From Psammoneis japonica (Eukaryota): 64,000 nucleotides of DNA. Below, in pieces: positions 1-41,995 of this stretch. The translations under genes were made by a program, and so were the position numbers. How positions within the stretch are numbered: position 1 is the stretch's first letter; every line of letters starts with the position of its first letter. The stretch covers positions 372,001 to 436,000 of the forward strand of contig QPGO01000048.1 in the NCBI GenBank assembly GCA_008632985.1, read 5' to 3'. A model generated the notes under the pieces. That model was not told the origin of the DNA and searched no databases. It worked only from the letters and a program-made list of their open reading frames with translations.

Positions 1-1900
1 AGTTGCAAACATCCATGAACATGAGCGGTGCCGCGGGCTTGGCATTTGATCCAAAACCAAGTCCAGCTTGTTTTCATCCCATTCTTTCCAAAGAAGCTCT
101 TTGTCATCAAATTGACCCGTTCTTGAAAGAAGGCGTCAACAATGTGAGGGTCATCTAAGACAGCCTTGCGACAACAGGCGGCTTTCTCTTCTTCTGAAAA
201 CTCTTCACAGCCAGAGTTGCAAATCAACAAGGCGCGAAGGTCCGCCCAGTGGTTGTCGGTGGCTGAAAAAGCAAACCATGATGCAGGCATTCCGCACTGG
301 TCTGTCAGAGCCTCGAGCTCCTTCTTCTTCTTGTAGAAATGCGAATCGCTGCCTGGGATGTTTGCGTTGAACTTTTGCATGTTGGAAACAAGTTCTTTGA
401 AGCGCGGCCCATTCTCTTGCACTGCATGCTTCAGCTCTTCCTCGGTGAGCTGTGCGTCTTCTGGGCACTTTCGCAGGTGTGCTTTCTTTTGATCCTGGTG
501 ACGGTGCCGAGTGGCAGCATTCTCGGCCCAATGCATGCACCGATTGTGGCATGCAAACGGACACACCCACTCTCCCTCCTTGTCATCAAAATGGGCATGC
601 TGCAGCAAGTGCTTGTTTGCCTCCGCCATGGCAACATTGATGCGGCGATCGTCACACGTGACATCCCCGTTGCCGTGCGGGAAGAGAGCAGGAAAGGCTG
701 GGCTTTGAAGCCAAGGAAAGGTGCAGTCATTGATGGGCTGGCCGTTGTTTTCAATCTCTTGGACGACGGAAGCAGGATCAAATCGATCGTGGAGAGTGCT
801 AGAAATTTCGGCGCGCTGCTGACCTGGATGAGGGCCAGATGGCAGACACCCAGATGCGACATCCTCACCCTCCTGTCCGCTTGCCCCGCCTTGTTCTGGA
901 CCACTTGCAGCAGCATCTTGGTCTTCACTTGCATTGCCTGCTGGCTCACTCTCATCTGCAATTGATGACATAGAATCCGCAACTGATCCATCCTGTGGGA
1001 GCAACAAAAGATTGTCCAGGTTGATGTCGATGTCACAACAGCCTGGATGATTTTCCTTCAGCCAGACAAGCCATTCTGCAACATTGTCGCGGCGAACCTG
1101 AAAGTCTTTGCATCCATTTGGTGTCCTTTGGTTTGGCTTTCGAAGGACAAAAACTGGCAAGTCGGAAACCTTGAGTGGAAGGCTCGCAATGACTTCGTTC
1201 ACATCCTTTTCAAGATTCACGACGGATCCTTTGCACCCGACTTGCCCGGACTGAAGGCAACAGCACTTCATGACAGTGTGAGCACAAGCAATGAGCATCT
1301 CTTCAACCTCAGATGGCTCGGGCAGGTGTGCAGGACGTCCCTTGGTGCAGACATCCATGTCATTTGCTGCAGAGAAACAACTCAAGCCATGCTCCTTGAC
1401 ATCCTTGGAACAAGCAAGGCACTGCTGCGGGTCGGACTCATTCATGTTCAAGATGAACCAGTGCTTCTTGCAAGTGGCACACCACATCATTTCTGTCTTT
1501 GAAATTCCGTCCACAAATTCATCTTGACAAGCTTTCATCTGTGGACCAGTCAAACAAGAGTGAGAACGATTGAAGAGGAAAGTGACGACAATCAACATCG
1601 TGTCTCTTGCATCGGAGTGGTCTTCTAGATTGACACCTGGATGCTGGCCGTCCCTGCAAGCTTCAAAACATTCAACAAGAGAAGAGGGTGGAACTGGAGG
1701 GTCATCAGAAGAGGACGAAGTAGATGACGATGACGAGGAGGAAGACAACGACAAGGACGAGGAAGGGTCATTGTCCATCGATTGCCTTTTTCGTCTGTTT
1801 GCTTGTTTCATTGCTTGGCGGTTTTGCAGCCTTGCTTCTGCCATTGACATTCCTTTGAAAAATCTGGCTTCTGCATTTGATTGGCGTTGTCGAGCCCTTG
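1..1900 (-). mobile_element. Helitron RepHel gene, N-terminal part (CxxC motifs, DUF6570-like region, start of HUH Rep domain); TpA-mutated, runs off the window edge
   Basis: Manual minus-strand translation gives WCATCKKHWF...CLACSK...FSAANDMD...VEEMLIACAHTVMKCCCLQSGQVGCKGSVVNLEKDV...VRRDNVAEWLVWLKENHPGCCDIDI, then PAFPALFPHGNGD, and at 1-60 KCQARGTAHVHG (ExQxRGxxHxH HUH motif). The upper boundary is approximate. Confidence 0.85.
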
Positions 1901-1984
1901 CCATTTCTTGCCATTCTTGAGTCGACAGGTGATCTCGTGCTCGTGCTTGAGATTGCTCCTTCCTTCCATTCGCAACTCTGTGAT

Positions 1985-4900
1985 TGTTGGTGGAGGAATC
2001 AATGGCAGCTGGTAGATCTGGATGAGCAAGAACAGACAAAGTAGAGCCATGAGTAAAAAAATTCGACAAAGTAGAGCCAACAAAGTGGGAACACTTGCGA
2101 CTCGAAGTGCGTTGTCGTTTCGCATCTCTGTCAGAAGAATCATCAACAGCGCTGGTCACTCGTCGAGTTCTGTGTGACAAAACTCAGGATTGGTGATGTT
2201 TGAAACCTCCGAATCTTGCGTTGACGAAATCTCAATGTGATCGACTGGAAGAGAAAACTCGGGATGTTTGGTGCGACTCTGGAAAGCATCCTCTCGGTTG
2301 CGCTTCCTGACGTCTTTTACGGCTCGATCCTCCGATCGGCGTTCAGCATGTCTCTTTTGGTCGCACTCTCTTTTCCGCTGTGTAGAGGTTGAAAACGAAG
2401 TGGGCGTTCCAAACACTGCATCCTGAGATCCATGAGAATGGTGCGCGTGCGGTGATCCAAAAGAAACGTGGGGCGGCATGCAACGAGGAGCAGGAGGCGG
2501 ACGAAAGTGAGGAGCCGACATCCAATGATCACAGGGAGGAGACAAAAAAGCTTGAGCCGGAGCATGCTGGTGTCCAAAATTGGGCATGCCTGGCGGCATC
2601 ATGAAAGCATCGCAGGGGCGACAGTTCCTCACATCGAGAGAGCCATGAACGACAGGAGGAGAAAAAACAACACCATTTCGAATGCACTTGTTCCACTCAT
2701 CAATCAAAGAAGCTTGAGATTTGGTGGAATGGGTTGATGCAGGCGATGTAGGTTCTGGAGCTTCCGGCGGAACGTGGGGTCCGGCGGAAAAGAATGCCTT
2801 CTCAACAAGCTCTTGCTCCTTTGGATCCGTTGTCGCTTGCCCCACCAGACGACGAGTGGGCATGGGAAAGGAAGCAAAAGAAAAGAGTGGGATGAGTGTA
2901 GATGCAATGGTTGCAATCTTCATCGTGTCGAAAGCGATGTCGAGACGAGACGATGAGTTTTGTGTTTGGCGGGATTTTGTTTTCCGCGGGAAAAGTGAGT
3001 GGCGAGACCTCGTTTCAATCAAGAGCTCGCAGGCGCGGAAGTTAGGTGCGACTATACGTGGTTGAATATTTATTAAAATTTACGTAGAATCCTACTGAAA
3101 TCAAGTTGAGTTCTATTTTAGCGATAGTAGCTCTGTTTTGGTAATAGTAGATGTTTTACTATATCGATTCTGTAGATATTTTGAGAAGCGTTTCGGGGCG
3201 ACCCTGTTCGGACCGTTAAATGGAATTTTTTTTATCCAGATTCCACAGTTCTTTCGGGGTGTTCGTAAGATTTTTGAAATGGTATATGTATATATTAGAG
3301 GCGTATGCAAATTTAATGATATGTAATACCTTCAGAAACAGATATAAATAAATCTTTCATGTAGACCACGTAGATTGTGTACCGGCCGAAAATCCACCGC
3401 ATGTCAATTCACTCAGTAGTAATTCTACGTATATTCTACATACACCTCACACACGTACACACGCCTACACAGTCTAATAACCGCGCACACGTGCGCGAGA
3501 TTAATCTTAATAAAAATCATGTTTGTCTCACTTTGTCTCACGTTGTCTGCATGTGTCTTCCTTCGCTAACAATTGTATAAACGTATCGCACGATATATAG
3601 CATAAAATAGTTACTTAAGGGCCTTTGGCTATTTTGGCGACATTGATAGAAATGTCTCACTTTATGTGGCGATAAATGATTGTTTATGGGAGTCATTTAT
3701 TTTACCATACATATCGATGGAATGTATTTGATTGTCGTAAGATAATACAAAATGTCCTAGTTTTCCGTTTTGGCGACATTTTCGTTAGTGTTCCAGCTCG
3801 CTCAAAGCCTTACCGTGCGGACGTACCGGCACCGGCATTGTCAGTTCTCTACTCTACTCTGTGTCATAGCTTGAGGATGTAGTTCTAGCTTGACTACCTT
3901 GCTATCTAGCACTACACACAGTAGAGAGACGAGGGCCTGCTCTGCTGTGCAGCAGAGACCATGTCTGGCTAGCTAGAGAAGGTCTTGCACTCTAGAAATG
4001 GATGTGCAGTGCTGCTGAACTTTGCTTGCCATCACAAACGAAGAAGACAATGTGCATGAAAAAGGAAGCATTGAGTCGAGGTGTCACTGCTCTGCTTTCC
4101 AAAGAGAGCTGTCTGAAGTGCTGTTGATGTGTCGTGTTGTTGTGTGTGTTTTTGGCGAGCGAGCCGTTTTTGCCCCACAAAATTTCTCTCAGGTGCAGAC
4201 AGCGGGAAGCACCGGCGTGACCCACCTCATCGTTTTGTCGTTGGTGCACCTGAGTGTGCGAATGCGCGTGTGCGAACGACAACAGACGATTTATGCACCT
4301 CTGATCTTCAAGCAAGACCTCCAAAATAATCGTGTGTTCGTTGTTCGTGTGTCCAGGCCCGCCCGCGCGCTTTCAGCTTGATGAAAGGTCTGTCCACATC
4401 GTTTTTGAGTTTAACCCTTGGGGCCAACAGACGCAGCGCCTTGGAAAATAGAAGCATGCAAGAAAATGAAACTGCTTGATCTGTTCACGTGCTCTCCAGA
4501 GAGAGTGTAAAGAGAGTCCGAGTTCGTAGACAAGCAATGCCCTCCAGTTGATGTCATCCGCAGCTCTCTGATCCCCAAGGCAACGCAGCTGCACGCGATC
4601 TAGACCCGACATGCAAGAACCAAGAAGATGTTGGTGGAGGAATCAATGGCAGCTGGCAGATCTGGATGAGCAAGAACAGACAAAGTGGAGCCATGAGTAA
4701 AAAAATTCGACAAAGTAGAGCCAACAAAGTGGGAACACTTGTGACTCGAAGTGCATTGTCGTTTCGCATCTCTGTCAGAAGAATCATCAACAGCGCTGGT
4801 CACTCGTCGAGTTCTGTGACAAAACTTGGGATTGGTGATGTTTGAAACCTCCGAATCTTGCGTTGACGAAATCTCAATGTGATCGACTGGAAGAGAAAAC

Positions 4901-7280
4901 TCGGGATGTTTGGCGCGACTCTGGAAAGCATCGTCGCGGTTGCGCTTCCTGACGTCTTTTACGGCTCGATCCTCCGATCGGCGTTCAGCATGTCTCTTTC
5001 GGTCGCACTCTCTTTTCCGCTGTGTAGAGGTTGAAAACGAAGTGGGCGTTCCAAACACTGCATCCTGAGATCCATGAGAATGGCGCGCGTGCGGTGATCC
5101 AAAAGAAACGTGGGGCGGCGTGCAACGAGGAGCAGGAGGCGGACGAAAGTGAGGAGCCGACATCCAATGATCACAGGGAGGAGACAAAAAAGCTTGAGCC
5201 GGAGCATGCTGGTGTCCAAAATTGGGCATGCCCGGCAGCATCATGAAAGCATCGCAGGGGCGACAGTTCCTCACATCGAGAGAGCCATGAACGACAGGAG
5301 GAGAAAAAACAACACCATTTCGAATGCACTTGTTCCACTCATCAATCAAAGAAGCTTGAGATTTGGTGGAATGGGTCGATGCAGGCGATGCAGGTTCTGG
5401 AGCTTCCGGCGGAACGTGGGGTCCGGCGGAAAAGAATGCCTTCTCAACAAGCTCTTGCTCCTTTGGATCCGTTGTCGCTTGCCCCACCAGACGACGAGTG
5501 GGCATGGGAAAGGAAGCAAAAGAAAAGAGCAGGATGAGTGTAGATGCAATGGTTGCAATCTTCATCGTGTCGAAAGCGATGTCGAGATGAGACGATGAGT
5601 TTTGTGTTTGGCGGGATTTTGTTTTCTGCGGGAAAAGTGAGTGGCGAGACCTCGTTTCAATCAAGAGCTCGCAGGCGCGGAAGTTAGGTGCGACCATGCG
5701 TGGTTGAATGTTCATTAAAATTTACGCAGAATCCCACTGAAATCAAGTTGAGTTCCATTTTAGCGACAGCATCTCTGTTTTGGCAACAGCAGATGTTTTG
5801 CTGCATCGATTCTGTGGACATTTTGAGAAGCGTTTCGGGGCAACCCTGTTCGGACCGTTAAATGGAATTTTTTTATCCAGATTCCAGAGTTCTTTCGGGG
5901 TGTTCGTAAGATTTTTGAAATGGTGCATGCATGTGTTAGAGGCGCGCGCAAATTTAATGATGTGTGATGTCATCAGAAACAAACACAAACAAATCTTTCA
6001 TGTGGACCACGTGGATTGTGCACCGGCCGAAAATCCACCACATGTCAATTCACTCAGTGGCAATTCTACGTACATTCTACATGCACCTCACACACATGCA
6101 CACGCCCACACAGTCCAACAACCGCACACACGTGCGCAAGATCAATCTCAACAAAAATCATGTTTGTCTCACTTTGTCTCACGTTGTCTGCATGTGTCTT
6201 CCTTCGCTGACAACCACACAAATGTGTCGCATGACACACAGCATAAAATGGTCACTTGAGGGCCTTTGGCCATTTTGGCGACATTGACAGAAATGTCTCA
6301 CTTCATGTGGCGACAAATGATTGTTCATGGGAGTCATTTGTTTTGCCACACATGTCGATGGAATGCATTTGATTGTCGCAAGATGACACAAAATGTCCCA
6401 GTTTTCCGTTTTGGCAACATTTTCGTCAGTGTTCCAGCTCGCTCAAAGCCTTGCCGTGCGGACGTGCCGGCATTGTCAGTTCTCCACTCTGCTCTGTGTC
6501 ATGGCTTGAGGATGCAGCTCTGGCTTGACTGCCTTGCTGTCCAGTGCCACACACAGCAGAGAGACGAGGGCCTGCTCTGCTGTGCAGCAGAGACCATGTC
6601 TGGCTAGCTAGAGAAGGTCTTACACTCTAGAAATGGATGTGCAGTGCTGCTGAACTTTGCTTGCCATCACAAACGAAGAAGACAATGTGCATGAAAAAGG
6701 AAGCATTGAGTCGAGGTGTCACTGCTCTGCTTTCCAAAGAGAGCTGTCTGAAGTGCTGTTGATGTGTCGTGTTGTTGTGTGTGTTTTTGGCGAGCGAGCC
6801 GTTTTTCGCCCCACAAAATTTCTCTCAGGTACAGCACATCGTGACAGCGGGAAGTGCCGGCGTGATCCACCTCATCGTTTTGTCGTTCGTGCGCGCTGAG
6901 TGTGCGAATGCGCGTGTGCGAACGACAACAGACGATTTATGCACCTCTGATCGATCTTCAAGCAAGACCTCCAAAATAATCGTGTGTTCGTTGTTCGTGT
7001 GTCCAGGCCCGCCCGCGCGCTTTCAGCTTGATGAAAGGTCTGTCCACATCGTTTTTGAGTTTAACCCTTGGGGCCAACAGACGCAGCGCCTTGGAAAATA
7101 GAAGTATGCAAGAAAATGAAACTACTTGATCTATTCACGTGCTCTCTAGAGAGAGTATAAAGAGAGTCCGAGTTCGTAGATAAGCAATACCCTCTAGTTA
7201 ATGTCATCCGTAGCTCTCTGATCCCCAAGGCAACGCAGCTGCACGCGATCTAGACCCGATATGTAAGAACCAAGAAGATG
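1985..7280. repeat. ~2.64-kb tandem duplication (copy 1 1985-4630, copy 2 4629-7280)
   Basis: tgttggtggaggaatcaatggcagctgg begins at 1985 and 4629; ...gaaccaagaagatg ends at 4630 and 7280. ORFs 2156-3022 and 4600-5715 are near-identical. Confidence 0.95.
2156..3022 (-). other. Pro/Ser/His-rich ORF upstream of Helitron RepHel (probably element-derived; second copy at 4600-5715)
   Basis: 288-aa ORF with no Tyr, same strand as RepHel, duplicated; no recognisable domain. Confidence 0.4.
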
Positions 7281-8899
7281 ATGGCGCCAGAGACTTTTGC
7301 TCAAAAGGATATCGTGCAATTGCCATAAAACAGCGGCGCGCAATGCTTCGCGTCCGCCCTTCAATCCGCCAACTTCGTGCATACTACTAGAACCTCCCAG
7401 CCGTCGAGGATGAACTAGATACACCTGACCAGGAACTACAAGGCGCGCTTCTTCGCCTTCACTACCGTGAGCGTGTGTCTTTAAACTTGATACCTAGGAT
7501 CCGCAAACCGTCGTATGTGAGTGCAACAAGACATTGCAAAGTGCTGACACCAAAAAGTTAGACGGAAGGTGGAACTTTCTACTCACCGTGAGCGACACTG
7601 TGTCTGTCATCCGACTCAATTGTCTTCCGAGAAAGCCTCCCTTCATTGACTTTTGTGTCCGCTCACATAACCGATCCAAACTGTCAGCAGTTGTGCGCGT
7701 AACATCATCATCCCCATAGATAATTGACGTGATAAAGGCTGCCTTAACGTTCGCCGAAAGGCAAGGCGGTGCGCCTAATACGACAGCCGAAGAACGCCCT
7801 TGTCCACACCCTTCCAGCTGAAACGAAGTCACGTTGGCGGATGAACTCTCCTGCGCTTCTTTTTTTCGGATACACACTCTCCAGCGTCTGAGCTTGTTCG
7901 GCGCCTTTTCCGCTTTCGGCGTTTGGAGGAACCATCCTCCGATGGAAGGGGTAAGCTCCCATCCAAAATCGTAGCAGCCAAGCTTGCAATCCCTCCAGCC
8001 ACCGACTGCCCAACAAAATGAATGGCGATTTCAGAGCTGTTGTATCTTTGTAGTGTCGGCTGTAGAACATCTTTTAGAAGCCTTCCAGCAGCTCTGTAGA
8101 GACTCCCCTGGACTGAAACAACCTCGTTTGCAACCAGACCTGTGTGTAAGCCCACAAGCAAAGGCTGCTCATCCAATAATGCTAGTGTGCGAGGTAAGTC
8201 GTGCACCAACGAGTCCCCGACGACGACCAATAGCCGGCCATGATGTGAAGAACGCTCCAACGGAGCTGCTTCCACCAGATCTTCAATGCCGCCGTGGTCG
8301 AGACCTGCGCCGCCTTGATACAAAGGCTCATACAAGACAAGAACCGTCAGATTCATCCCTTCCGTTACCAATGTGGTTGCATTAACTACTATTTCCCTGC
8401 CAACAAGAGTTCCGTTAGCGTTCTCCTTCATCTCCTCCACGAGAATCGAAGGCTACTCAAGAAGCTCGCAGAGTTCTGCCGCAAAAAGAGCATCGGCAGC
8501 ACTCCCAGCACGAGTTGCGCTTCGACGGGCTCTCCCAGAGACGGAAGCATCAAAAGATTCTCCGCTACTACGATGGGTTCGTTGGTATGCCTCGTGAGCC
8601 GCGCCATCGAACTTTTTCAGAGTGCCCTGAGCTGAAGAAAGTGCTGCAAGCGCTCGCTCCACTTCAGCCGTATCCGGTTGCCTCTCATCTTCTGGGAAGG
8701 AAAGACGCTTCTTAATGACGCCTGCCAATAGTTCATAAACATTACTACTGTTTTTCGAACCTTTCTGTCGCTTGCGTTTTGACGGGGAAGCACCGCCGCG
8801 GCAGATCTCTAACGCTTTCAAGGGCAACAGATGGGCACTTGCGTTGTTGTAAGAAAAAGAAAGAGTCGCAACCAGCAAATAGAAAAGCAAACGGTTCAT
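7194..8899 (-). pseudogene. Secreted class-3 lipase-like alpha/beta hydrolase, apparently disrupted
   Basis: Signal peptide MNRLLFYLLVATLSFSYNNASA (ATG 8899); nucleophile-elbow-like HFVGQSVAGGIASLAA; IIYGDDDVTR; C-terminal WRHHLLGSYI; GT-AG intron 7586-7494. In-frame TAG at 8455-8453 and a frameshift near the T-run at ~7860. Confidence 0.65.
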
Positions 8900-9120
8900 G
8901 TTGAAATTCGTATTGTTGTGTTGGCTGATACCGTATGGAGGGCGTCGAGGATAGCTATTCGAGTCAGTCTTCGTGTTGGTTGACGGGTGTCGATCTCCAC
9001 ATGCAGGGTGCGTGCAGGAGTTCGTGATTGAGCTCATCCAGCCGAACAACGCGAAAAAGGGGGAGGTGAGGGGGGTCGGGTGTGGAGGCAATCACGTACT
9101 TGTTACACGTGCTTTTAGTG

Positions 9121-9367
9121 CTCCTCGTACCCAAGTTTAGATGGAGACGGACTGACTCGAATCAACCCCCCGCGATGACCATGACTTCTCGCCTGATCCA
9201 TTTCGGAAGCTTGGGACTTCCGGTTCAAGATGACCCAGTCCAGTCTTCTGACTGTGACCGGTCAAACTTCGGTTTTCTCTTTTCCCACTTTTCCAGCTTG
9301 ATTGGAACAGGAACCCTGATCAACGTAACTGGATCACACAAGCCCGGAAAAGCATTGTTCTTTTTCA
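9121..9367 (+). repeat. Ngaro repeat A1
   Basis: ctcctcgtacccaagtttagatggagac...gcattgttctttttca, 247 bp, matches 17590-17836. Confidence 0.95.
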
Positions 9368-9849
9368 GTCTCTCTCATCATGTCGGATTTCTTCGCCTCA
9401 GGTGTCTCGGATGATGCGTTCGTTGATTTGGCTTGTCAACTGGAGTTGGATGTTGTCTCGCCTTTCTTGTCGAGCTCTCCGGCGGCTCCCTCTCCTCAGG
9501 CTCGCCCTGCTGGGGCTGCGCATCAGGGGGGGAGTTGCGAGGGCTCAAATCCTCGGGGCATGAGCGATGATGTTTCGGGGGGTTGTGGTCATCCCCAATC
9601 GGACATTGACAGAGCAGAGTTGGGGGAAGTCATTTCCCGCCATCCAGGAACTCACGTTTTGGAAGGAGACGCATCCCACCTGGTTCAGAGGGAAACCCGC
9701 TCGTCTCGGGTTGGTTTCTTTGGGCGGGATTTAGCGGGTGATGTCGGAGGCACGGTCGAGTCGGAGGGGGGAGGTGCATCCTCTTCGTCCTTGCATGTGC
9801 GCCTCATCATCGAATCACCTGGCTGGAGACTGTTGGAGCACCTCGGTGC

Positions 9850-11842
9850 TTGGGCATCAAGGGCGGAGGAGCCACCTTTTGTCTCAAGAAGGCAAGCGAG
9901 TGTAATGTGAAGCATGAGGGCGGCAAGATGAATGTTCCGGCATCGGGTGTGACAGCAATTCTCAAGTCCCCAGACACGGGTTTTTGCCAACCCATCCTAA
10001 ACGGCGGGAACATGTCTGGTGAGGTGTTGGCCAAGTGGGAAGCCGAGTCGGATGCACTGGCTGGTTGGCGGCAAAATTTCTTGGTCCTGGCCAATGGTGA
10101 GCCCTTTTACACCGAGGACGAAGTCGAACCCACTCTGAGGGAGTGTGAAAGGACGGCCGAGTTCAAGACACCGGCTCGGAAGCAGTGGCCGGAACCGTCG
10201 ACCCCTCAAGAAGACACTGTTCTGGAGGGGTTCACGCCTTGCGAAAAACAAATGCTCTCCACCCCGGTGCAGTTCCTGGTGGCCAACAAAAGTCCGTCTG
10301 CGTTGGCCCGTGTGGTGCAATCAACAGAGGATGGGTTGAGGCAAGCTGGGGAGGCACTGGCCGACTTTGGAGACAAAGCTGGCAAGCGCTTCCACGCTGC
10401 GGAGTCCATGGTGGACATTCCAAGCCGAAAGCTGGATCAACTGGACATGTCTCTCGGGGAACCAACCCAGGGGTTTGACGAAGCTCTGCTCGCCCCCACT
10501 CTTTGGGGTGCGCTGGCGAACATTGCGTCCTGGGAAACCGGAACCCAATCTCCAGACCTGGTCGAGCGAGTCACGCAAGTGGAGACGGGTTGGCGAAACC
10601 AATCCAACAATCTGGTGAGGACGTTCAATGAGAGGTTCCAATGCCTGCAAGATCGGATGGGATCGACGGCCAGCCGCACAGATCTGGAAAACTCGAAGAA
10701 GAATGTGCTTCGCGTTTGTGCACAGCTCACTTTGAAGGTTGGGGCGATCGAATCCCAGCGCGGTTCGGGGTTTGCACCTCCAGGTGTTTCATTTGATCAA
10801 GGGTCCGTGGAAGCACGTCTCACTCGCCCAGACCATGCTGTGAGTGAATTGCGCGCAAAATTGGACAAGTCGGCCATTGAGTTCTTGGGGGTTGGTGCAT
10901 CATCCTGCAAGGAGTGTCAAGCTTGGATGACACAGCATTTCCCCTCGAGGGCGCATGGGTGCTTGGCTGACATCGTCTTGCTCTTGGACCGGATCAAGGG
11001 GATCGAGCCCACTGCTCTGCACCACTTTTTATCTCAGTGGGCCAAGCAAATGAGCATGAACATCGCGACCGAGGAAGACGCGAGAATGTTGGCGGGTTTC
11101 CAGCACCGCATGCCCCGGATTTTCGACTCGGGATCGGCAAAGTCAGCTCAGACCTTGGGGTTGCACCCTTCCCACCTGGACAAGGTAGAGTCTTATGAAC
11201 ACTGGTCGTCTGGCAATGTGGGTGCCAAGCACTTCATCGAAGGGAAAATCGCCTCGGCGGAGAATGACATCATGGAGGACATCAATCAACGCATCAGACC
11301 AGGCACGTTTGAGAGCCAGGTGGTGTGGGATGCGTTGTCAAAATCGGCGGCTTTCCTGCGTGCCCTGACTCAATTCATCGACTCCACTTGCGCTTCCCTC
11401 GCTGATCTGAGCAAGTTCTTGAAGAAGCAAGCGTGGTCGATGACCCACAAATTGACCCATCGCATCTTTGAGGACATTCACAAGGCGTGCTCGGGGGTCT
11501 TTACCTCCATTTCCGGCACGGACCCGGACGCGGTGTGCAGCAAAATTTTGTGGGCGGTGTTTCGAACCCAGGATGTCATGGCCGAGCACACTTCCATGGG
11601 TTTCGCCAATCACCCCTCGATGGCGTCCGAATGCGTCAAGTTCCTCGCCACCAACTCCGGTTTTGAAGTGGTTGGACTTGCAATCCAAGGTCCTGACATT
11701 GACGGATGAAGCCAAAAACGCGAGTTCTGAAGCAAAATCAGCCCAGGCCCGCGGGGATTCGGCTCACGTGGAACTTGGGAAATTGCGGACGGAAGTGAAG
11801 GAACTAACTCGGCGCCTCAAGGTTCTTGAGAACAAGAAGTGA
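9850..11842 (+). pseudogene. Ngaro ORF1 (gag-like, coiled-coil C-terminus), frameshifted near 11690
   Basis: 619-aa ORF plus an overlapping coiled-coil tail (LRTEVKELTRRLKVLENKK); first ORF position in the element. Confidence 0.65.
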
Positions 11843-12240
11843 AGCCCATGGGGAGCGGAGGAACCGTGGGAGGGTCCGGTCTCGGTTGACAGGCCTGACA
11901 ATCTAAGGCATGTCATGCGAGGCCGCAAAGCCTTCTCATTTCAGGGAGCATGCTCAGTTCTTTCCTCCAGTCCCCCAATTTGGCTGTTGTCCCTTAGACC
12001 AAAAGAATGGCCCACACTGTGCTTCTATTCCGACAACTCAGCCTTTTCCCATTGGAGTCCCCTCTTGGTGGATGTGTTCCAAAGCCAGCCAGGAGCTTCC
12101 TTGGCCCAGGTCGGTTGGTCGAGCGTGGGGCATCTTGCCACCCGGGTTGATCTCGCATTTGTGTCAGGTCCACCGTCATTCCTAGAACCCGCGGCGCATG
12201 TCATCCAACCCACGCCCTTCATCATGATCCCCATGGGCAC

Positions 12241-15200
12241 GTGGGACAATTTTCTAGACGTGGTCTCCTTGGGCTGCATCAGCTCCAATGGCGGGAGATT
12301 GCTCATGCGGTGGTGGGAGGAGTTGCTTCGTTCCGCACAACTGTGTTCTGGCACGGGGTGCCCTCTCCGGTCTTTGATGAAGGCCTGCGCCGTTCCATTG
12401 GTCACATCATTGATTGCAAGCTGCCCGGGCCGGCATCGCCCCAACACCCCCGGGGTGAGTTTTACACAGAAGCTGACCATCTTAATCCGCAGTTCCTGGA
12501 CCGGCCGGTCATGCACCCGTCTCATCGGTCTCCGACAGGTTGGGCCTCCCGCACTCTCTCTGTGGATGAAATGTTGGCTGCCTGGGATTTCCCTCTGCGT
12601 TTCCGGACTCCTCAGGTGCACCGGGCTTTGGAGCAGGGGTTTTCGCTTGTCCCGCTGAACCTCCTCACTTTGTTTGTGGAAACTTACATTGCCGACGCTC
12701 CCCGCTCCTCGTCGAGGCCTGGGGGTGTGGGTGATCGGGACACTGTTGTTGACGTTGCGCATCGTGAGACAGGAACGTGGCCACCTGGCCTTCAGCGGTG
12801 CTTGCCTCACACTTGGATCGACGTGTCTCTGACAACGGCGAAAGCCACTGAGGGTGATGCGGCGGCGCCTCCGCTTCGTTTGTGGGACAAGCAGATTGCC
12901 CTGCTGTTCCCGACCTTTGAGAAGGCTCTGCCTGCACTCCGGAATCTAACCCACCGATGGTGGCAACGGAGGACCCTCCGGTCCTTCCCATCTTGCCTGC
13001 ACCAAGAGCATGGACCAACGTGGGTTGGCAGGTTGGCCATTCAACGTCGGTGTTTTGGGGATGCCAGGGGGCATCTTCAGGGGGGGGTTCACCGTCACCC
13101 TCCACTCCCACCTTTGCCACTTGACGCACACCTTGGAGCGGACGTGTTGACACAAGTGTTGGCCAGTTCATGGTGGAACTGGGGCCGAGGCTCTGCCCTC
13201 CTGTTTTGGCGATGGCCCACTCCGGAACAGCGGGTGTGCGCCCGGGATGGAATCAAAATTTTTGTTCAAGGCCCCCTTCCCCACAATCGTCGCCGTCAGC
13301 GAATTCAAGGTGCAGAGCAGGAGATCCTCCGGATGGCGGATGAGATGCAGAAAGTCTGGGACCAAGGACACATCTGCCAGAGGGTAAGGTGATTAGCTTG
13401 ACGGACCATTTTTGGGTCCCAAAGACTGTTCGGGTCGAGCCTCAGAATGGGCGATTGGTGGAAATCGTTGAGGATGTACGGATGGTTTACAGTGGGACCT
13501 CTTCCGGGTCAAATGATGCCTTGTGGGCACCCTCCTTTTTCTTGCCCACCCCCGCCTCGGTTCTGGGTTGCATGACCCACTCTACCTTCTCGGTGGACCT
13601 CGATCTTGGTGACATGTTCTTAAATTTTTTCATGGATCCCGCCATCCGGCCGCATGCGGGGATCGACCTAACCCCGCTCAGGCCGCATCTTCTGACGACC
13701 GGACCGTCTTTGGGGGGTTCACTCTGGTTCGAACGATGGAACTGCCTGTTCATGGGCATGCGCCCCAGCCCTTGCTCAGCAATTCAAGCCTTCTGTTGGG
13801 CCGACAAGATTGCCCGAGGCGACCCACGACATCCTTCCAACATTGTGGGGTGTGACAAGCTCATCCTCAACTTGCCGGGGGACCCAAATTTCCAGATGGA
13901 CAAACCGTTCGTCATGAAGTGGAACTCACATCGGGAGGAAATTGCTGGGGACATCAAAACCTTTGTGGACGACTTGCGAGGCATGGGAGCGAGCGAGGAA
14001 GCCACATGGCAAGTGGCTCATCAAATGGCCTCTCGATCACAGCATCTTGGTCTGCAGAACGCGGCTCAAAAAGTGCGCCCTCCTTCTCAGGTTGAAACCG
14101 GCGCCTGGGCGGGTGCCATCTTCAGGGTCATCGACAGGGACGTTGCTCAGTCGGCAACCCAGGCCAAGTGGGATAAAGCCAAGGCCATCATTTCCGATTT
14201 GCTTGATCACTGTGCAGATCAGGCCAAAGGCTTCCTTCCCATGTTTGACTTTAAGGACCTAGAGCGGAAACGGGGTTTTCTGGTTCACCTTGCGATGACT
14301 TGTGCCTTTCTAACCCCCTTCTTGAAAGGGGTCCATTTGACCCTTGACTCGTGGCGACCAAACCGAAAGGAGGACGGTTGGGCCATGACCGGAAAGGAGT
14401 GCGCGAGCTGGATTCATCACCTGGCTGAGAAGCAGGGACTAGAACCGTCTGCAGTCATCGAGGGGCTAAGGGACCGTCCACCACCTCAGCAGGTCACGGC
14501 GGTCCCTCGCCTGTTCACGGATTTGGGGGCAATGTCCCGAATTGTGGAGCCCCCGACCCCTGCTGTGGTGATCATTCGGTCCTCGAAAATCGTTGCTGTC
14601 CTTTGTGGGTTCGGCGATGCATCTGGAAAGGGTCTTGGCACGTCTCTAGAAGCATCGGACGGAACGATTGTCTTCCGGATTGGTGTGTGGGGCGACGACG
14701 AGCTAGGAAATTCTTCAAATTGGAAGGAATTGTCCAATGCAGTCGACACCATCCAGGAACTCGTAGAGGAAGGGGAATTGACTGGGGCGTGTCCATTCTT
14801 TTTTACCGACAACTCGGTTGCTGAACTCACCTGGTGCAAGGGCACCTCTTCCAGCTCTCTGCTGCTCAAGCAAATTGTCCGGTTGAAATCTTTAGAGGCC
14901 AAGCATGGGATTAGACTGTGTCTCACACACGTCTCGGGAGGTCGGATGACAGCGCAGGGTGCGGACGGAGTTTCTCGGGGAGCATTGTCGGAAGGTGCAA
15001 TGAATGGGGCCAAGATGCTTTCATTCGCACCTCTTCATCTCGCAGCTGCCACTCGCTCTCCCACTCTGTTTGCGTGGATCCAATCCTGGGTGGGTGCTCC
15101 CTCTCTGGAGTCACTGACCCCCTTGGAGTGGCATCAGAAGGGACATGACATTGCCAGCTGGAATTGCTTGAGTCAAGAGGCAATCGAGATGCCCCAGTTC

Positions 15201-15686
15201 AAGTCAGGCACTTGGGTTTGGGCCCCGCCCCCGGCCGCAGCGAGGGCTGCTCTGGAAGAGCTCCGGATCGCCAGGATTAAATGACAGACTTCATTCCACA
15301 CATTTGTCTGCCCACGTTTGATGACACCGGAGTGGCAGAAGCAGTTGTGCAAGGCGGCGGATCTGGTGTTCACCGTCCCAGCTGGAGCGAGGTCTTTCTG
15401 GCCAGGTGACATGTTCGAGCCATTGCCAATCAGTCTCCTTTTTCCGTTTGTTTCTTGCAGCCCTTGGCAGCTGCGGGGAACCCCAAAAATGTGTGCCATG
15501 GACCGGTCCTTGCGACGAGTGTGGGCGGACTCTGCGGTGGACGAAGGGCATCTTCTGCGCAAATTTTGTGCACAATGTGGGAATCTGGCCGGCATGTCGG
15601 AAAGCATGGTGTCCCGGGTGTCATGCTTCGAGAAAAAGCGTGACGTTCCATCTGGGGGGAATCCTGACGGACGACCCCCAAAATGA
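12241..15686 (+). pseudogene. Ngaro pol: reverse transcriptase + RNase H (frameshifted, Tyr-depleted)
   Basis: SSWWNWGRGSALLFWRWP; HFWVPK...VRMVYSGTSSG; DLDLGDMFLNF; MGMRPSP; TFVDDLR (RT catalytic motif); GFGDASGKG, SSNWKEL, FFTDNSVAE, HVSGGRMTAQGADGVSRG (RNase H). Confidence 0.9.
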
Positions 15687-15719
15687 TGAACCCTGACTCT
15701 CGGAGCTGGCCGCCCTTGG

Positions 15720-17026
15720 TTGGACGACAGCACTTGGTTTCGGAAGCCACAGGACAAAAATGAGTTCTTGCAGGCTCGGGTTGGAGACCATCTTGTGGTG
15801 GCGTTTGAGTGCGATTTGTGTGTTTTTCACAAGTTGTGCCAGAGGGAACCCGCAACGTCATCACCTCGAGACGAGGTTGCCCTGGCTTGCATTCGCCACG
15901 TGATCCTGGACGCTTTTTGGAGCCGGGAGTCATCAACAGTCGAAGCGAATGCGGCCAGAGTTGGACGGGGCCCGACTTCATCTGAACGTTTGGGCCTGAC
16001 AGGTCCTTGCCTTGAACCAGGTCCACTCCCGCCCTGTGACCACTGTGGGCACAAGGTCGTGATGCAGATGGTCTTGGCATCTGCAACTGCGGGGAAACAC
16101 TCGGAGGCACAACCCAATTCGATGCGATCCGGAAATTGCAGACTGCATGCTCTAATCAGGTGTGGGCCTCTGCCCAGGCTAACTCACATGCTTTGGCGTT
16201 GGGTGACTTGGAGGGAAAGCAGTGTCTCCGGGCATGTGAGGACCCGTGTGCCTCACTTTGGTTTCAACGTTTCATGACTGGCTGCAAGAGATGGGTGGGT
16301 CAAGACTGGAGACCCGACAGGGCGATGTCAGTGGACGTCATGCAACACCTCATGCCTCGAGTCAAGGAGAAGGCCCTTCGAGCCCCAGGAGAAGCGGACA
16401 GATTCATGTGCCTCTTCTGCGGTTTGCACTTCGCGGCCAGCTGCGCATTGTCTCTCCGGGGCCCAGAAGGTCTGCTCATGGACCTGGGCGCTCTGGCAAA
16501 GCATCTGCCAAGACATGCGGATTGCACTGCAGTCCCACTTTTGGGGCGAGTGAAGGGAGAACATGGGGAGCGGCAGCACCTCCTCCCAAGTGTGAATGTA
16601 ACCAGCTCCGGGACCAACCTTCGATTTTGGGTGGAGACGGCAGTGTCGTTACACTTGGCACGTGGTCAAACGCGTGGACCAGCTGTGTCAGATGTGGACA
16701 GAAAAGTCTTGTCCACCAAAGAGCTTGACACTTTCCTCCATGAAGTGCTGGGAGACATCTACGACGACCATCCCAGTTTGTTTGCTGCTGATGTCACGTC
16801 CATTGCCGACACACAGGACAAATGTGATGCAAGCCGATCATTCCGGAGGGGATCTGATTCTCGTGCTGTTGCTCAAAAGGTGTCTGAAGACGACATTGAT
16901 GTTGTCAACTGTTGGAAAAAGAAGGAGAGAGCGGGGGCGGCTCGACCTGCTCACAAAATGCGGCAACACTGTGCCGACGTCACTCTTCTTTTGCCCTCTT
17001 TCCTGCGTTGCACCAAGGCCATGTGA
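15720..17026 (+). pseudogene. Ngaro tyrosine recombinase (frameshifted; putative catalytic Tyr now Cys)
   Basis: ALSLRGPEG (Arg I), LLGRVKGE (Lys), SRSFRRGS (box II), MRQHCADV with TGT at 16970-16972 at the expected nucleophile position. Confidence 0.85.
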
Positions 17027-17140
17027 TTCGGGACGATTGCAAGCCCTTGGAGACGTCAGGCTCTCAAAGAGCAGTTTTCATCGCCCTGCTTTTGAGATCG
17101 GCTTTTATGGTGGCCACTGCCCAGGTTTCTCATCGGGGGG

Positions 17141-18288
17141 GGATTAGAGCTCGACCTGTCTCATTCGGCCCCGGGAGTCGTTGAGACTGGGTTCAAGACA
17201 ACTGAGCAGCACAAGACCTTCGACGGCTTCAGTTTTCATGTGGGAAAACTTGGTCTGGCATGTCTTTGTTTGAGTTGACCTTCTGCTCTCTAAATTGCAC
17301 CCAACGTCGCGCAATGCCGAAGGGAACAATTCTCGAGATTGGTCCTCGAAAACGCCCGAGGTGCTTGCACTGCTCCGCGGTGTGTCACAAGAGCCCCTGC
17401 ATTGCTGCAGGACCCTGCGGAGGGCATGGGTTTCCCCATCCCCCCTTGTGCAGAGTAGAGCTTGTGCCGAAAGCTTCACTCTGTGAGTCTCCCAAGTGTC
17501 CCAATGATTTGTCACTTCTCAGTGGTTCTTGACTGGGATCATCCGAGATCTGGTCCGAAGCGGCGGGTGGCAGAGTCCTCACTCGGATCCTCCTCGCACC
17601 CAAGTTTAGATGGAGACAGACTGACTCGAATCAACCCCCCGCGATGACTGTGACTTCTCGCCTGATCCATTTCGGAAGCTTGGGACTTCCGGTTCAAGAT
17701 GACCCAGTCCAGTCTTCTGGCTGTGACCGGCCAAACTTCGGTTTTCTCTTTTCCCACTTTTCCAGCTTGATTGGAACAGGAACCCTGATCAACGTGACTG
17801 GATCACACAAGCCCGGAAAAGCATTGTTCTTTTTCACCCACCCACCTCACCCTGGATTGGAGCTCGACCTGTCTCATTCGGCCCCGGGAGTCGTTGAGGC
17901 CAGGTTCAAGACAACTGAGTGGCACAAGACCTTCGACGGCTTTGGTTTTCGCACGGGAAAACTTGGTCTGGCGTGTCTTCGTTTGAGTTGACCTTCTGCT
18001 CTCTAAATTGCACCCAACGTCGCGCAATGCCGAAGGGAACAATTCTCGAGATTGGTCCTCGAAAACGCCCGAGGTGCTTGCACTGCTCCGGCATGTCACA
18101 AGAGCCCTGTCCTGCGGAGGGCATGGGTTTCCCCATCCCCCCTTGCACGGAGTGGAGCTTATACCGAAAGCTTTACTCTATGAGTCTCCTAAGCATCCTG
18201 ATGATTTGTTGCTTCTTAGTGGTTCTTGACTAGGATCATCCGAGATCTAGTCCGAAGCGGCGGGTGGCAGAGTCCCCACTCGGATCCT
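17141..18288 (+). repeat. Ngaro 3' repeat block B1 (17141-17591) / A2 (17590-17836) / B2 (17854-18288)
   Basis: ggatt(a/g)gagctcgacctgtctcattcggccccggg at 17141 and 17854; both copies end ...cactcggatcct. Confidence 0.93.
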
Positions 18289-18606
18289 ACACGCTCTACA
18301 TGTTGTAAATACGGTGCCGTAGGGTTCGACCTCCCAAGCCGGGAGTGGTAGGGTTCGTACCGGTATCCTTCACCCCCCCCCCCCCCCCAACAAAATGGAT
18401 TCCGTCCCGCTGGTAAAGGTTGAAGGTATTACAATGCTAAATTGACAGAAGACCATGCTGAGCAAGAGAAATGAGAATTGCTATCTGTCGGAACACATAG
18501 AAACCAATACCTGGTAGAATCGAAAAGCCATCATTCGACATACGAGCGGCGCGGAGTGATCGAGGGGGGCGTATTTGGAAGCAGCAACAGGCACTCCAAC
18601 CAAAAA

Positions 18607-20285
18607 ATGTCATCAGACACCGCCAGCCATCTTCAAAGCCCACTGCCGAAGAGTGTGTCCGGAGTCCTGTCATTTCGGCGGCGAATGTTTCTTATTACGG
18701 TGGCATGCCTCCAGAATATTGCCGCGTCTGGGATAATATATGGCTGGGCGAGTGTCGCGGGGTCTTTGTTGGTGGCATCTTTTGAGAACGGAGGCGCCGC
18801 CCTGAAATTGGAAGACACGACGAGCATTTTTTCTGTCGCGGCCTGCGTTTCATTTGCATCATCCCTGTTTCTAGGGTATATTCTAGATCATTTCGGGCCA
18901 ATAGCTTGCTCAGTCATATCGCACATCGTTATTGGAATGGGTTGCGCCGTTTTTGCCTCAGCACATTCTTACTTTGGATTTCTTACTGGGCTGTGCCTTA
19001 TTGCATTTGGGGGACCAGGGATTGTTTGTTCCGTTGTTCATCTGGCAAATCTCTTTCCAAACAATCGATTCCTCGTTATGACGACTGTGACGGGAAGCAC
19101 CACTCTTTCATTTGGTGTTTTTGTACTTTTTGACAGTCTCTGGATTCGATATGGTTTGGGATTCCGAACTCTCTTTGGAGCTTATTCTACTGTTATCACA
19201 GTTTCTTGCGCTGCATCTGTTTTCTTATGGCAAGATACGCCCTACGAGCTGGCAGACCAACAGCCACCAGAAGAAAGCATTGGCGAAGACTCACCGTTGA
19301 TCGAATCCAAGGAACGTACCCGGTTCGTGACGTCGCTGATCGATCATGAACACCTAATCGAACAACCTCTAGATTCTGGATTGCGAAACAACGACAAACA
19401 TCAGCTTGACCGACACGCGTCATTCCTCATGTCTAAATCAGCAATAGAAATTGGTAATGAAGAAGCACTGAAGAACATCAGCTTGAAGGATCGTCCGTTT
19501 CTCTCGCAAGTCACCAGTGGTTGTTTTCTGCGGATAACATCCTTGTTTCTTGTGTTCACATTCTTTGCTAGCCTTTATGTGGCTTCCATTACAATCGAGG
19601 TATGTCTCGTACCTAGCTCAAGTATGAGCCCACCCCTTTGTCCCTGCTTTAAGTGTTGCTTGTTTTCTTTTTGTTGATATTTAAGCTCGAAGACACCCAG
19701 TATTTCTCCGAAGAAGACCAGCATCAGCTTACCCGCCTTCTAACCTTGTGCATGGCATCAGGGATTCTCGTATCCCCACCTGTTGGGTGGCTATTGGATA
19801 CGGCTGGATGGGAGACGTGTACTATCGTGACTGTAATAGTGGAGCAGATACACATGCTACTGCTCGTTTTCTTCACGCGACAGAAAAGTATGATGATGGT
19901 TGGTTTTCTCGCCTATACGGCGTTTCGACAGCTATTCTTTCCCGTTTTCTTTGCAAGTCTCACAGATAGACTTGGCTACAAATACTTTGGCGTATTGTCA
20001 GGACTTGGATATGCAGTGTCAGGTGTCGGCCAGCTGTTGATAAGTCCCGTCGTCGTTTTGGTTCAGGGAACATGTCATTTGGAAGTAGATGGTCTAAGCC
20101 CGACCTCGACAGATTGCACGAACGGCAAATGGACCGAGCTTCATTTCTTTCAGTTTGTCTTGTTCTGTTTTTTGATGCAAATACCTCGTCTGGATTATCG
20201 AATCAAGAAGCGTCAAGAGCGTAATGTCAAGAACGTTCTCAACATTGGCACACACCAAGGTGTTGCAATGGCGGATTACTTGTAG
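18607..20285 (+). CDS. Major facilitator superfamily transporter (SLC43/LAT3-like), 2 exons
   Basis: Many TM helices, SGIIYGWAS, GYILDHFGP and GWLLDTAG motifs; intron 19600-19685 (GT...AG) joins the two ORFs in frame. Confidence 0.85.
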
Positions 20286-20855
20286 CAATAGAGGTACGTA
20301 CGGTTCGGCTGACTGGATGGTATGGCGCTGGCCCTGGCTGGATAGATAGCGATGGGCTGGATGGCACGGCATGGCATGGCTGTGCTGGCTGGATGGATAG
20401 GATATGGCAGGGCATGCCATGATATGTATGAGGAAATTGTGAGCGAAAAGTTCAACAGTCTAGATCCGATAATTTCGTTAAATTTGAACACCAATTTTTT
20501 ACACCTACCGGTAGTACCGGTAGCACACGAGAAGGTAAAGAATCTTCCACATATCACTGATCAGGGGTGCTCTCGCTGCGAGGTTGACAGCAGGCAAACC
20601 AAAAACGTGTCCGTTGCTTCCTATTGCGTTGAATAGGAAAAACGAAACTACCTAAACAACTCAGCGTAAGTAAACAGATCAAGCGAGCATCCAAACCGCC
20701 AACCATGCATTTCTGCAGAGGGGGCATGGCGGGAACTGCCGCGAAGTACCTATTCTCGCTGTTCACACTTGACAGAATACTTGAGTGGTGCTGCCTAGAG
20801 GAATCATGGTTCGCTTACCGTCTCTTTTGCTTTGTCTGCCTTCCTTTCTATAGAA

Positions 20856-21513
20856 ATGAGCGCGCAAGCATTCATTGCTTTCTTGAAATGCGAGGCGAAT
20901 CAAGCCGCGGAGCGCGCCAAGAGCCTAAGAGCTACGGCAGCCGCAATCGAAGCGAATGCCGGTAGCGAAGGTAAGAACAAAATAGACGTACCGGTGTGAT
21001 ATGGGGTTGTCACCGGATGCCGGTACTGTAGGTGTGTTAATCAGACTGCTTGCTCTTGGCCATTTCAAAAGATTCAGGACGAAAGAAGCGCAAAGCCCGC
21101 GATCCCAGCAAGCCTAAGAGATCTCACACGGCATACACTCTCTATGTGCACGAAAATTACGAGCTGATCAAGAAGAATCAAGATCCCAACATACCTTCAA
21201 AAGACATCATATCGCTTGTTGCAAAGCAGTGGGCTGAAACGAGCGAGGAAGATAAGCAGGTATGATAGAAAGGGTGATTCTAAATGGATTTCTCTTTGAG
21301 GATCAACTCACACTGCCGGATGGAACTCTTTCGTATATATAGTTGTGGAAAGACCGCGCCTTAGCCCACAAAGTGGCGCATGAATCGAGCGAAGCTGGAG
21401 CAGGTGACATGGATGAGATGTTGGAAACTGATGGAGCAGAAGACTTGGAAGACGGGGACAAGGGCAAGAAAAGGCGCGCAACGAAAAAGGTAGCAAAGAT
21501 GACCTACGTGTAG
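20856..21513 (+). CDS. HMG-box protein, 3 exons
   Basis: KKRKARDPSKPKRSHTAYTLYVHENYELIK...IISLVAKQWAETSEEDKQ|LWKDRA; introns ~20971-21071 and ~21260-21342; TAG at 21511. The true start may lie upstream. Confidence 0.85.
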
Positions 21514-21591
21514 AAGTTGGCTGCCGGGTTGAGGGCGATTTTACTGAATATGATACATCGTCGAGTGGGGGTTAGCTAGTTTTCATTTCCC

Positions 21592-23291: not shown

Positions 23292-23754
23292 TCAAGTATG
23301 CTTTTGTTGCCACGCAAAAAATCCCGGTGCTTACAGCTGCTCTGTCGGAGCTTGAGATGTGCGTCATTGTGCGATCCGGTCGGTGACCGGTGATGCGATG
23401 ATGATCTCCGCCGTGCGCCGTTTTTTGCGCCGCCGACCGCCGATGACGTGTCTGTGAAACTCGAACACATCGACTAAAAGCGAGGGCTCGTTGCTACACA
23501 ACACATAGCCTTACTTACAGTAGGTACGACCTAAAGGTACCGTACTTGAGCTTGTCTTGAAATTACCTCAACTAAACCTTAACTCAAAGCTTGTCACAGT
23601 GTAGTAACAAAAATATGACACTTCTGGAGAGTACCACCAAGAATGCGTGACAGCGCGATATCATTTTCATTGGTTCAAGGCACAACTTACGATTCTGTAT
23701 AAGACAGTTCGTGTTGTCCAAGAGACCTCGAGGACAAGTCAATCAGAGTTTATC

Positions 23755-41800: not shown

Positions 41801-41995
41801 GCAAGACATTTTGTTGAAATGATCGGGGCAAGTGATGCAAACTTGATGCAACAAGCCTCTGCTTCAATGGACATCATGGATTCCATGGATTGAAAGTGCA
41901 ACAATTGGTGCAGGCTGATGGAATGAAGCACAGTTTTCAAATGTCTTTGCATCGGCATGACGCAGTTGTGCCAGAAGCATCTGAGATGTTGATGA
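38821..41995. repeat. ~1.58-kb tandem duplication (38821-40388 / 40407-41995)
   Basis: gaggtggttggcaaac at 38821 and 40407; both copies end ...gccagaagcatctgagatgttg. Confidence 0.92.

Follow-up and report, generated by a model that had tools for sequence, protein, structure and literature searches.

The closest described counterpart of the pattern analyzed here comes from Bigelowiella natans, for which a preprint reports that two integrated viral regions underwent 230 A/T>G/C changes, every one of them at TpA, with 11 of 15 lines affected (bioRxiv 10.64898/2026.01.13.699255). According to Mettrop et al., integrated DNA of NCLDV (nucleocytoplasmic large DNA viruses) and of virophages is targeted at an approximately 1000-fold raised rate, the activity appears in only some lineages, and the larger target region is single-copy; the choice of target is left open there, with epigenetic marks suggested, and ADAT2 is proposed as the enzyme, though unproven. 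Other relevant systems are amphioxus ADAT2/3, for which the DNA motifs TCG and GAA and a preference for hairpin loops are reported (PMC10354150), and the RID and DIM-5/HP1/DIM-2 branches of RIP (repeat-induced point mutation) in Neurospora (bioRxiv 10.1101/115501). Here, we analyzed a stretch of 64,000 nucleotides from the diatom Psammoneis japonica (contig QPGO01000048.1, positions 372,001 to 436,000; hereafter the window), which corresponds to G000:C44:372001-436000, where G000 is the assembly (91.4 Mb, 597 contigs). Near its left end lies a tandem duplication of a unit of ~2.65 kb, which brings together the 5' end of a dead Helitron, a pair of transposon termini and a lipase-like gene's 3' end. 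Its two copies have lost TA dinucleotides reciprocally: 79 of 91 are gone from copy 2 at 5692-6557, and 12 of 15 from copy 1 at 4451-4629.

The two copies align at 1985-4634 and 4629-7284 with an identity of 93.8% over 2665 columns; self-alignment and site counts delimit them as 1988-4629 and 4630-7279. The original prediction had correctly recognized the duplication and its example strings are present in the sequence, but it let copy 1 begin at 3050, about 1 kb to the right of the actual start at 1985. As it had also claimed, most differences set TA against TG or CA (97 of 140 substitutions). We divided the unit into four segments. In segment A (1990-3049), TA is present in copy 1 only at three sites and in both copies at six, and two sites are discordant (CA in one copy, TG in the other). 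Segment B (3050-3925) has 79 TA in copy 1 only, 12 in both, none in copy 2 only, and two discordances; segment C (3926-4450) has two in copy 2 only, seven in both and one discordance; and segment D (4451-4629) has 12 in copy 2 only and three in both. All 82 copy-1-only sites thus lie to the left of all 14 copy-2-only sites, a perfect split with a chance probability of 8e-17, and the reciprocity that had been predicted is borne out. The last copy-1-only TA (3922/6557) and the first copy-2-only TA (3987/6622) bracket a switch whose unit coordinate is identical in the two copies, so that 96 of 96 one-sided losses lie inside one unit-length stretch, C1-D1-A2-B2.

Dense new erasure spans 4455-6557, with three scattered one- or two-copy losses at 3987-4210, and TA is retained in copy 2 at 6605, 6609, 6622 and 6628, i.e., 50-70 bp past its last loss. 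At eight sites within 4013-4178, both copies carry identical TG or CA where some family members carry TA, which indicates that segment C was TA-poor before the duplication. An edited domain of ~3.9-6.9 kb had been proposed; it does cross the repeat junction, but the new core is narrower (~4455-6557), and the TA poverty of 3926-4450 and 6560-7100, although present, is largely inherited rather than new. Changes other than at TA (indels, transversions and rare changes in AA context, e.g., at 4171-4249, 3573 and 3883) look commoner in the inner unit, with about 11 there and about four in the outer halves by an eye count.

The anatomy of the unit is as follows. The body of the dead Helitron, on the minus strand and TA-erased, occupies 1-3049 and extends to ~4.8 kb before the window; an open reading frame (ORF) at 3-2183 matches DUF6570 and Helitron_like_N. 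A1 is the part of this body within copy 1. B1, which keeps its TA, consists of the Helitron 5'-terminal region (3050-3500, minus strand), whose TC start at ~3500 is where at least 40 family matches in G000 stop; the terminus of an inverted-repeat element (3500-3797, 94% identical to G000:C12:764954-765261); and DNA known only from the two tandem copies (3798-3922, with no other match in G000). C1 (3923-4450) was for the most part TA-poor before the duplication and contains the polarity switch at 3922-3987; a second family of inverted-repeat elements contributes its outer end at 4007-4303, placed by genome matches. D1 (4451-4629, minus strand), the TA-depleted one, is an orphan end of the lipase-like gene, with its last codons, stop and 3' flank. 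At the duplication junction (4624-4636), this gene end meets the interior of the Helitron at 2 bp of exact microhomology within a longer imperfect one. Copy 2 then begins with A2 (4630-5691, minus strand), an orphan 1.06-kb piece of Helitron body, TA-erased with three losses beyond those of A1, and continues with B2 (5692-6557), the erased twin of B1, and C2 (6558-7100), which retained nine of the ten TA sites present at duplication. D2 (7101-7279, minus strand) is the D sequence in its native place at the 3' end of the gene, with 15 of 15 TA kept, and the lipase-like gene copy itself (7100-9120, minus strand) has a premature stop, a frameshift and an intron at 7492-7584, with TA almost intact.

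The direction of change was read from outgroup copies. Of 36 TA differences within 3112-3505, most of the 17 other family copies agree with the base of copy 1 at 31 sites, with that of copy 2 at three and with neither at two. Across the TA sites of the inverted-repeat terminus, the related element on C12 agrees with copy 1 except at 3758, and a third copy of the gene end, in a paralogue of the lipase-like gene, agrees with copy 2 at 12 of 12 D sites. Moreover, among four erased copies of the Helitron end, CA is found at a site where another has TG, and CA in some erased copies with TG in another leaves an ancestral TA as the only explanation. TA is therefore ancestral and has been lost in B2 and D1, as was proposed. 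The ordinary RIP direction, in which CA/TG would be ancestral and the TA-rich segments would have gained TA, finds support at only two of 79 B sites (3343 and 3758), where the outgroups favour gain in copy 1; given TA in the outgroups at 31/36 and 12/12 sites and the CA-versus-TG states of independently erased copies, we regard TA gain by RIP as ruled out, with a negligible probability left to it.

The changes in B2, counted with copy 1 as the reference, are confined almost entirely to TpA. A>G occurred at 80 of 183 adenines preceded by T, compared with 4/104 preceded by C, 2/158 by A and 0/95 by G (6/357 outside TpA in total). Both TpG and CpA outcomes were seen, assigned to the plus strand in 31 cases and to the minus strand in 49 (P=0.057), and their order along B2 is random (39 runs observed, 39.0 expected, P=0.55). 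Deamination of exposed single-stranded DNA or of an RNA intermediate in a single burst (kataegis, ADAR-type) gives strand-coordinated mutations. One burst on single-stranded DNA during the duplication is thus ruled out by the interleaved strands, and burst or RNA-intermediate editing in general by the lack of strand coordination and by targets that include a DNA transposon and a host-gene fragment; the interleaving would rather mean that the mutable state spanned several replications. Loss also differed between wider sequence contexts. Over B2 and D1 together, it reached 29/30 for RTAY, 50/58 for RTAR/YTAY and 12/18 for YTAR, and three other erased copies lost 33/36 RTAY and 5/12 YTAR.

CpG decay was detected along with TA loss, although TA loss is about four times as frequent in B2. 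CpG was lost at 8/42 sites in B2 compared with 1/42 in B1 (P=0.03), and C>T affected 8 of 82 CpG cytosines and 4 of 243 other cytosines in B2 (P=0.002). In the Helitron-end family, erased copies lost 9/68 and intact copies 11/442 CpG (P=4e-4). This decay suggests that the erased domains, B2 included, are probably CG-methylated. In Phaeodactylum tricornutum, CG methylation by DNMT5a is reported to mark transposons together with H3K9me2/3 and H3K27me3 (PMC9998398); G000 yields 27 matches to C5-methylases, unclassified. Elsewhere in and around the window, CG is nearly gone together with TA at 34500-47500 and at 31-45 kb upstream of the window (CpG observed/expected down to 0), and at 1-18000 TA is gone while most CG is retained, which suggests that TA loss is fast and CG loss slow, and would provide a relative age of domains. 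As a clock, erasure itself is unsupported: one erased copy departs from the family majority at 11 other positions and intact copies at up to 32, a measure that mixes subfamily with age.

Position could be separated from duplication by controls on the same contig. Genic blocks of the window hold 11-59 TA per 500 bp, and the blocks at 1-3000, 4000-7000, 9000-18000, 34500-47500 and 57000-64000 mostly 0-7. Outside such domains, 8.4 kb of duplicates with 97-98% identity (the lipase-like gene and 18287-24642 against their paralogues) share 351 of 360 TA, with four in the window copy only and five in the paralogue only. Inside a domain, the pair at 38814-41996 has 34 CA/TG discordances and five shared TA, so both of its copies were erased independently. 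Across a domain edge, the repeat pair within 17141-18294 (inner 17141-17597, outer 17854-18294) has nine discordances and eight TA found only in the outer copy, all in its last 140 bp; two TA are found only in the inner copy, which alone has lost five CpG. Duplication is thus insufficient for erasure, and place matters. Against these controls, the earlier contention that both paired copies were not edited in RIP fashion holds. They also favour targeting by chromatin domain, as had been suggested, although the tandem locus alone is no proof of it, with its switch at a single unit coordinate.

Certain segments are spared within erased surroundings. A full-length sister of the Helitron (G000:C211:94657-102953, identity 92.4%) was erased independently, with 109 CA/TG discordances in 7786 columns between the two bodies, and yet the 5' 450 bp is spared in both, with 44 shared TA and none discordant. 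In other autonomous copies, the 5' end has been lost partly (to ~3320, C201), as far as aligned (C19) or nearly wholly (C22). We further compared 30 copies of the 390-bp Helitron end, taken from 111-115 candidates: 26 keep 29-39 of 40 TA, four keep 5-9 of 40 and none lies between. Since the candidates had been ranked by their similarity to one or the other tandem copy, the erased share is no population estimate. Sparing is thus the default for the Helitron 5' end, with B2 among the exceptions. TA-poor DNA flanks three of the intact copies on either side, and at domain edges both intact and erased copies are seen. The original prediction of one mutated zone is therefore better replaced by protected islands that are kept or lost copy by copy. 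In six copies (L006, L011, L013, L020, L111 and L115), the first 100-200 bp outside the Helitron end is rich in TA, with erased DNA farther out; the end may shield the adjoining flank, or else insertion takes place at spots that were spared already. Several TA also survive within the erased Helitron body, in a patch at 2040-2075 (also at L059 and L063) with a 13-bp direct repeat. They persist in three separate insertions (C44, C211 and C22) and are lost in C19 and C201, and the patch is possibly a protein footprint.

Taken together, these data are probably best explained by erasure in place, with targets chosen by a putative chromatin state. The mutator converts A:T to G:C almost exclusively at TpA, and would work on both strands over several replication rounds. 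It acts inside kilobase domains of mobile DNA, probably in silenced, CG-methylated chromatin. The Helitron 5' 400-450 bp, transposon termini and genes are protected by default across copies, likely by open, factor-bound or transcribed chromatin. A tandem duplication joined by microhomology would then have doubled two protected islands. The outer twins, B1 attached to the Helitron and its enclosing element and D2 attached to its gene, would have stayed protected in their native long-range context, and the inner twins, which flank an orphan piece of silenced Helitron body, would have lost protection and been erased to 80-87%. Since identical sequences met opposite fates, the target would be read from a heritable local state rather than from sequence or a trans-acting homology guide alone. 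Erasure in place also predicts the unit-length pattern, because the inner halves of any tandem duplication leave their native context and the switch falls at an old island edge. A more far-reaching version, which we put forward only tentatively and hold to be somewhat doubtful, is a mutational genome defence of diatoms, chemically the mirror image of RIP, in which a DNA adenine deaminase reads a heritable silencing mark (CG methylation or its histone partners) instead of homology, promoter-like ends of mobile elements form protected islands, and protection is an all-or-none epiallele that one twin can lose although the other is identical.

Several observations weigh against this explanation. 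It does not account for the loss of protection in B2 rather than B1, as B1 adjoins 8 kb of erased Helitron and B2 is nearer the gene. Simple spreading from the long Helitron was rejected since it predicts erasure of B1 and sparing of B2, opposite to what is assembled; simple read-through from the promoter of the Helitron was likewise rejected, as it would make B1, not B2, the transcribed copy. A B1 restored through conversion, with the C211 sister or other family copies as donor, was also rejected, because copies 1 and 2 share derived non-TA letters throughout B that the sister lacks; B1 may have been restored from a homologue. In addition, the polarity switch at one unit coordinate is explained equally well by recombination or mis-phasing, and B is linked to C or D in no listed contig. 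CpG loss is absent from D1 (0/8). Amphioxus ADAT2 itself is reported to deaminate C in TCG, and for this reason CpG loss need not mean 5-methylcytosine (5mC); its A motif in Escherichia coli is given as GAA, not TA (PMC10354150). A search of G000 for a dedicated deaminase yielded nine matches to PF00383 and five to PF14437, all of ordinary housekeeping types by their motifs and without expansion, and the choice of the 30 Helitron ends by query likeness tells on the same side.

The most serious alternative for the pattern itself, improbable in our estimate, is a recombinant origin, in which editing of the inner unit C1-D1-A2-B2 took place elsewhere (on another haplotype, where both copies had been hit, or on an excised circle), after which a single conversion or crossover at 3922-3987 transferred it into an unedited allele with one copy. 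In that case the pattern would not reflect where the segments now lie, and both paired copies could have been edited. That all 96 one-sided losses fill exactly one unit length, with edges at the same unit coordinate, fits such an event, and interhomologue mitotic recombination in diatoms is reported at more than 4 per 100 divisions (bioRxiv 10.1101/2020.11.08.373134). Nevertheless, the switch coincides with an edge that predates the duplication, as erasure in place predicts and a random break would match in about one of five cases; no donor allele was found in G000; the 19% CpG decay in B2 would imply long chromosomal residence rather than a short-lived circle; and other twins have edges that lack such a coincidence. 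It follows that the claim that the changes post-date the duplication is likely but not settled, as the unit-long erased stretch fits recombination or mis-phasing too. Mis-phasing belongs to a still less credible explanation, an assembly artefact in which the B segments are swapped, so that copy 1 would be wholly erased with one edge in copy 2, or two haplotypes are joined in tandem. A single edge would be simpler biology, identical runs of more than 31 bp between diagnostic sites defeat short-read phasing, no listed piece crosses the junction, and identical dCMP deaminase loci (C41:506240 and C317:55748) make haplotigs probable in this assembly. On the other side, both B forms occur among the listed contig pieces of run X1, which may be the source sample (3538-3790 at depth 69 and 6179-6587 at depth 74, with one other letter each). 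G000 offers no alternative continuation for D1 or A2, no joint of D1 to the gene appears among the joints listed, and it is the less edited A copy that is connected with the Helitron body, which agrees with the order in the assembly. Breakpoints of the surrounding 8.5-kb segmental duplication (G000:C44 344904-353415 against window 6963-9122 and 18287-24642, 97-98% identical, with lipase-like, MFS, MatE and DUF1995 genes) coincide with transposon termini and so speak for a real duplication rather than for haplotypes that were joined; the erasure of TA in one twin holds even if the order is wrong.

Slightly more credible than an artefact, though still quite unlikely, is heterochromatin triggered by homology, where the close direct repeat nucleated silencing at its centre in a DIM-5/DIM-2-like manner and a TpA mutator followed. 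The new erasure (4455-6557) is indeed centred on the junction, and DIM-2-mediated mutation in Neurospora is reported mainly between close repeats (bioRxiv 10.1101/115501). However, erasure of segment A preceded the duplication, which means that a silenced seed already existed; the 8.4 kb of near-identical duplicates remain intact, as do 26 of 30 family copies, although none of these lie close together; and the Bigelowiella target is described as single-copy. Readings based on chromatin and on homology are compatible with each other. As for the chemistry, we see about an even balance for and against DNA adenine deamination by a tRNA-deaminase-like enzyme, the likeliest candidate by analogy. tRNA deaminases act on A34, which follows a conserved U33. 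The genome encodes an ADAT2-like gene (C26), with HAE, PCxxC and an N in the N113-equivalent motif, and a TadA-like gene (C38); the N is no evidence, being general among eukaryotic ADAT2. A search for TET/JBP had no match, and neither had its control, so that no conclusion follows. Other chemistry with the same targeting, which competes with the deaminase step only, is unlikely but clearly more plausible than the alternatives above. It could be error-prone patch repair of the polymerase eta type after deamination of 5mC, or modification of the thymine in TpA such that C is read in its place. CpG decay goes along with TA loss, and a palindromic target leaves an A lesion indistinguishable from a T lesion. 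Polymerase eta prefers WA, and the contrast between AA (2/158) and TA (80/183) is far sharper than that preference; moreover, a TA loss about four times the CpG loss in B2 speaks against this route.

Further elements and genes surround the unit. The Helitron, on the minus strand from ~4.8 kb before the window to ~3500, is considered dead because its ORF has one tyrosine in 727 residues, compared with 9-16 in four host ORFs of 400-614 residues. It is enclosed by the inverted-repeat element, whose second terminus lies ~5.4 kb before the window and whose sister is on C12; TA is kept at both termini in both sisters. A non-autonomous Helitron family of ~730 bp shares the same 390-bp 5' end, with more than 100 candidate copies genome-wide (L004-L020 and others), and a 388-bp member is inserted in the C22 Helitron. 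The paralogue of the lipase-like gene (G000:C44:344904-347060, 34 kb upstream, 97%) has an open frame of 510 residues and a weak Lipase_3 match (E=0.003, below the cut-off). A contig of run X2, labelled 'DNA?', skips the 93-nt GT-AG intron at 7492-7584, and among the pieces listed X1 has no such contig; the X2 contig carries paralogue letters, and window-copy letters occur in one 111-nt piece only, a weak hint that the window copy is transcribed. Just upstream of this gene, the duplicated segment is split by a TA-erased 9.2-kb insertion at 9121-18294 with repeats A1 (9121-9367), B1 (17141-17597), A2 (17590-17836) and B2 (17854-18294), labels distinct from those of the tandem unit. We take their order to resemble the split direct repeats of Ngaro/PAT elements. 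Pfam searches gave no match in this insertion, and nothing but Helitron in the ORFs of the tandem unit. The flanking TA closest to the insertion (9119 and 18315) are lost in the window copy alone. A tandem array of ~144-bp units lies at 42646-43791 within a TA- and CG-poor domain. By Pfam, the genes of the window (MFS, MatE, phage-type RNA polymerase and papain) form an ordinary nuclear set, and a light-harvesting protein has fucoxanthin-chlorophyll proteins as its closest solved relatives (E 1e-124), in keeping with a diatom.

The twins were presumably identical at birth, and their fates (87% against 0% erased) make it doubtful that sequence or trans-acting guides suffice as signals. Because the sole report of TpA hypermutation that we found leaves target choice open, the pairs B1/B2 and D1/D2 and the 26 intact and four erased Helitron ends offer comparison sites for this question. 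A natural TpA-specific A-to-G enzyme under chromatin control, if true, would carry mutational genome defence beyond C>T systems and into stramenopiles. The erasure is also relevant to dating and annotating diatom transposons, since stop codons and tyrosines vanish. A literature search, with most subscription journals outside its scope, found no paper on TA loss in diatoms; a Rhizoctonia paper treats ordinary transition bias and RIP indices (PMC7884421).

Compared with RIP in its RID branch, the locus shares dense, dinucleotide-specific transitions that destroy mobile DNA (bioRxiv 10.1101/115501). In contrast, RIP changes C to T and creates TA, whereas TA is ancestral and lost here; RIP copies are hit about equally (3163 and 3153 mutations in the same source), whereas the twins differ by 79 to 0 and 0 to 12, subject to the caveat of a recombinant origin; and long near-identical duplicates are spared here (351/360 TA), as are 26/30 family copies. 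With the DIM-5/HP1/DIM-2 branch, it would share mutation that follows heterochromatin and, in the cited account, is concentrated between close repeats. The central position of the new erasure would fit, but segment A was erased before the duplication, and that branch produces C>T by a cytosine methylase triggered by homology, whereas A:T>G:C dominates here and CpG changes are a minor class. Amphioxus ADAT2/3 is a natural tRNA deaminase able to deaminate A and C in DNA, and the diatom has an ADAT2-like gene; TA specificity and genomic domain targeting are not reported for it (PMC10354150). The likeness to Bigelowiella is the closest: A/T>G/C confined to TpA (80/183 vs 6/357, polarized by outgroups), TpG and CpA on both strands, foreign or mobile DNA as the target, clustered TpA-poor windows and an ADAT2-like gene. 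The all-or-none pattern of Helitron ends is compatible with a lineage-limited activity of that type. Here, however, the host is a stramenopile, and erasure, near-saturated and with edges sharper than 100 bp, strikes DNA transposons, their termini and a fragment of a host gene. Erasure is confined to mobile DNA and genes are spared, as seen from the TA profile against Pfam genes and from the intact 8.4-kb genic duplicate, with the orphan gene fragment inside the domain hit; every erased segment studied has at least one other copy in G000. The preprint measures rates directly, whereas ours are read from standing sequence; the twin copies add a control on targeting and a link to CpG, and the main text of the preprint covers neither diatoms nor CpG nor boundaries. 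The locus is thus a diatom, transposon-wide, CpG-linked and island-protected form of a process that has been reported once, in Bigelowiella.

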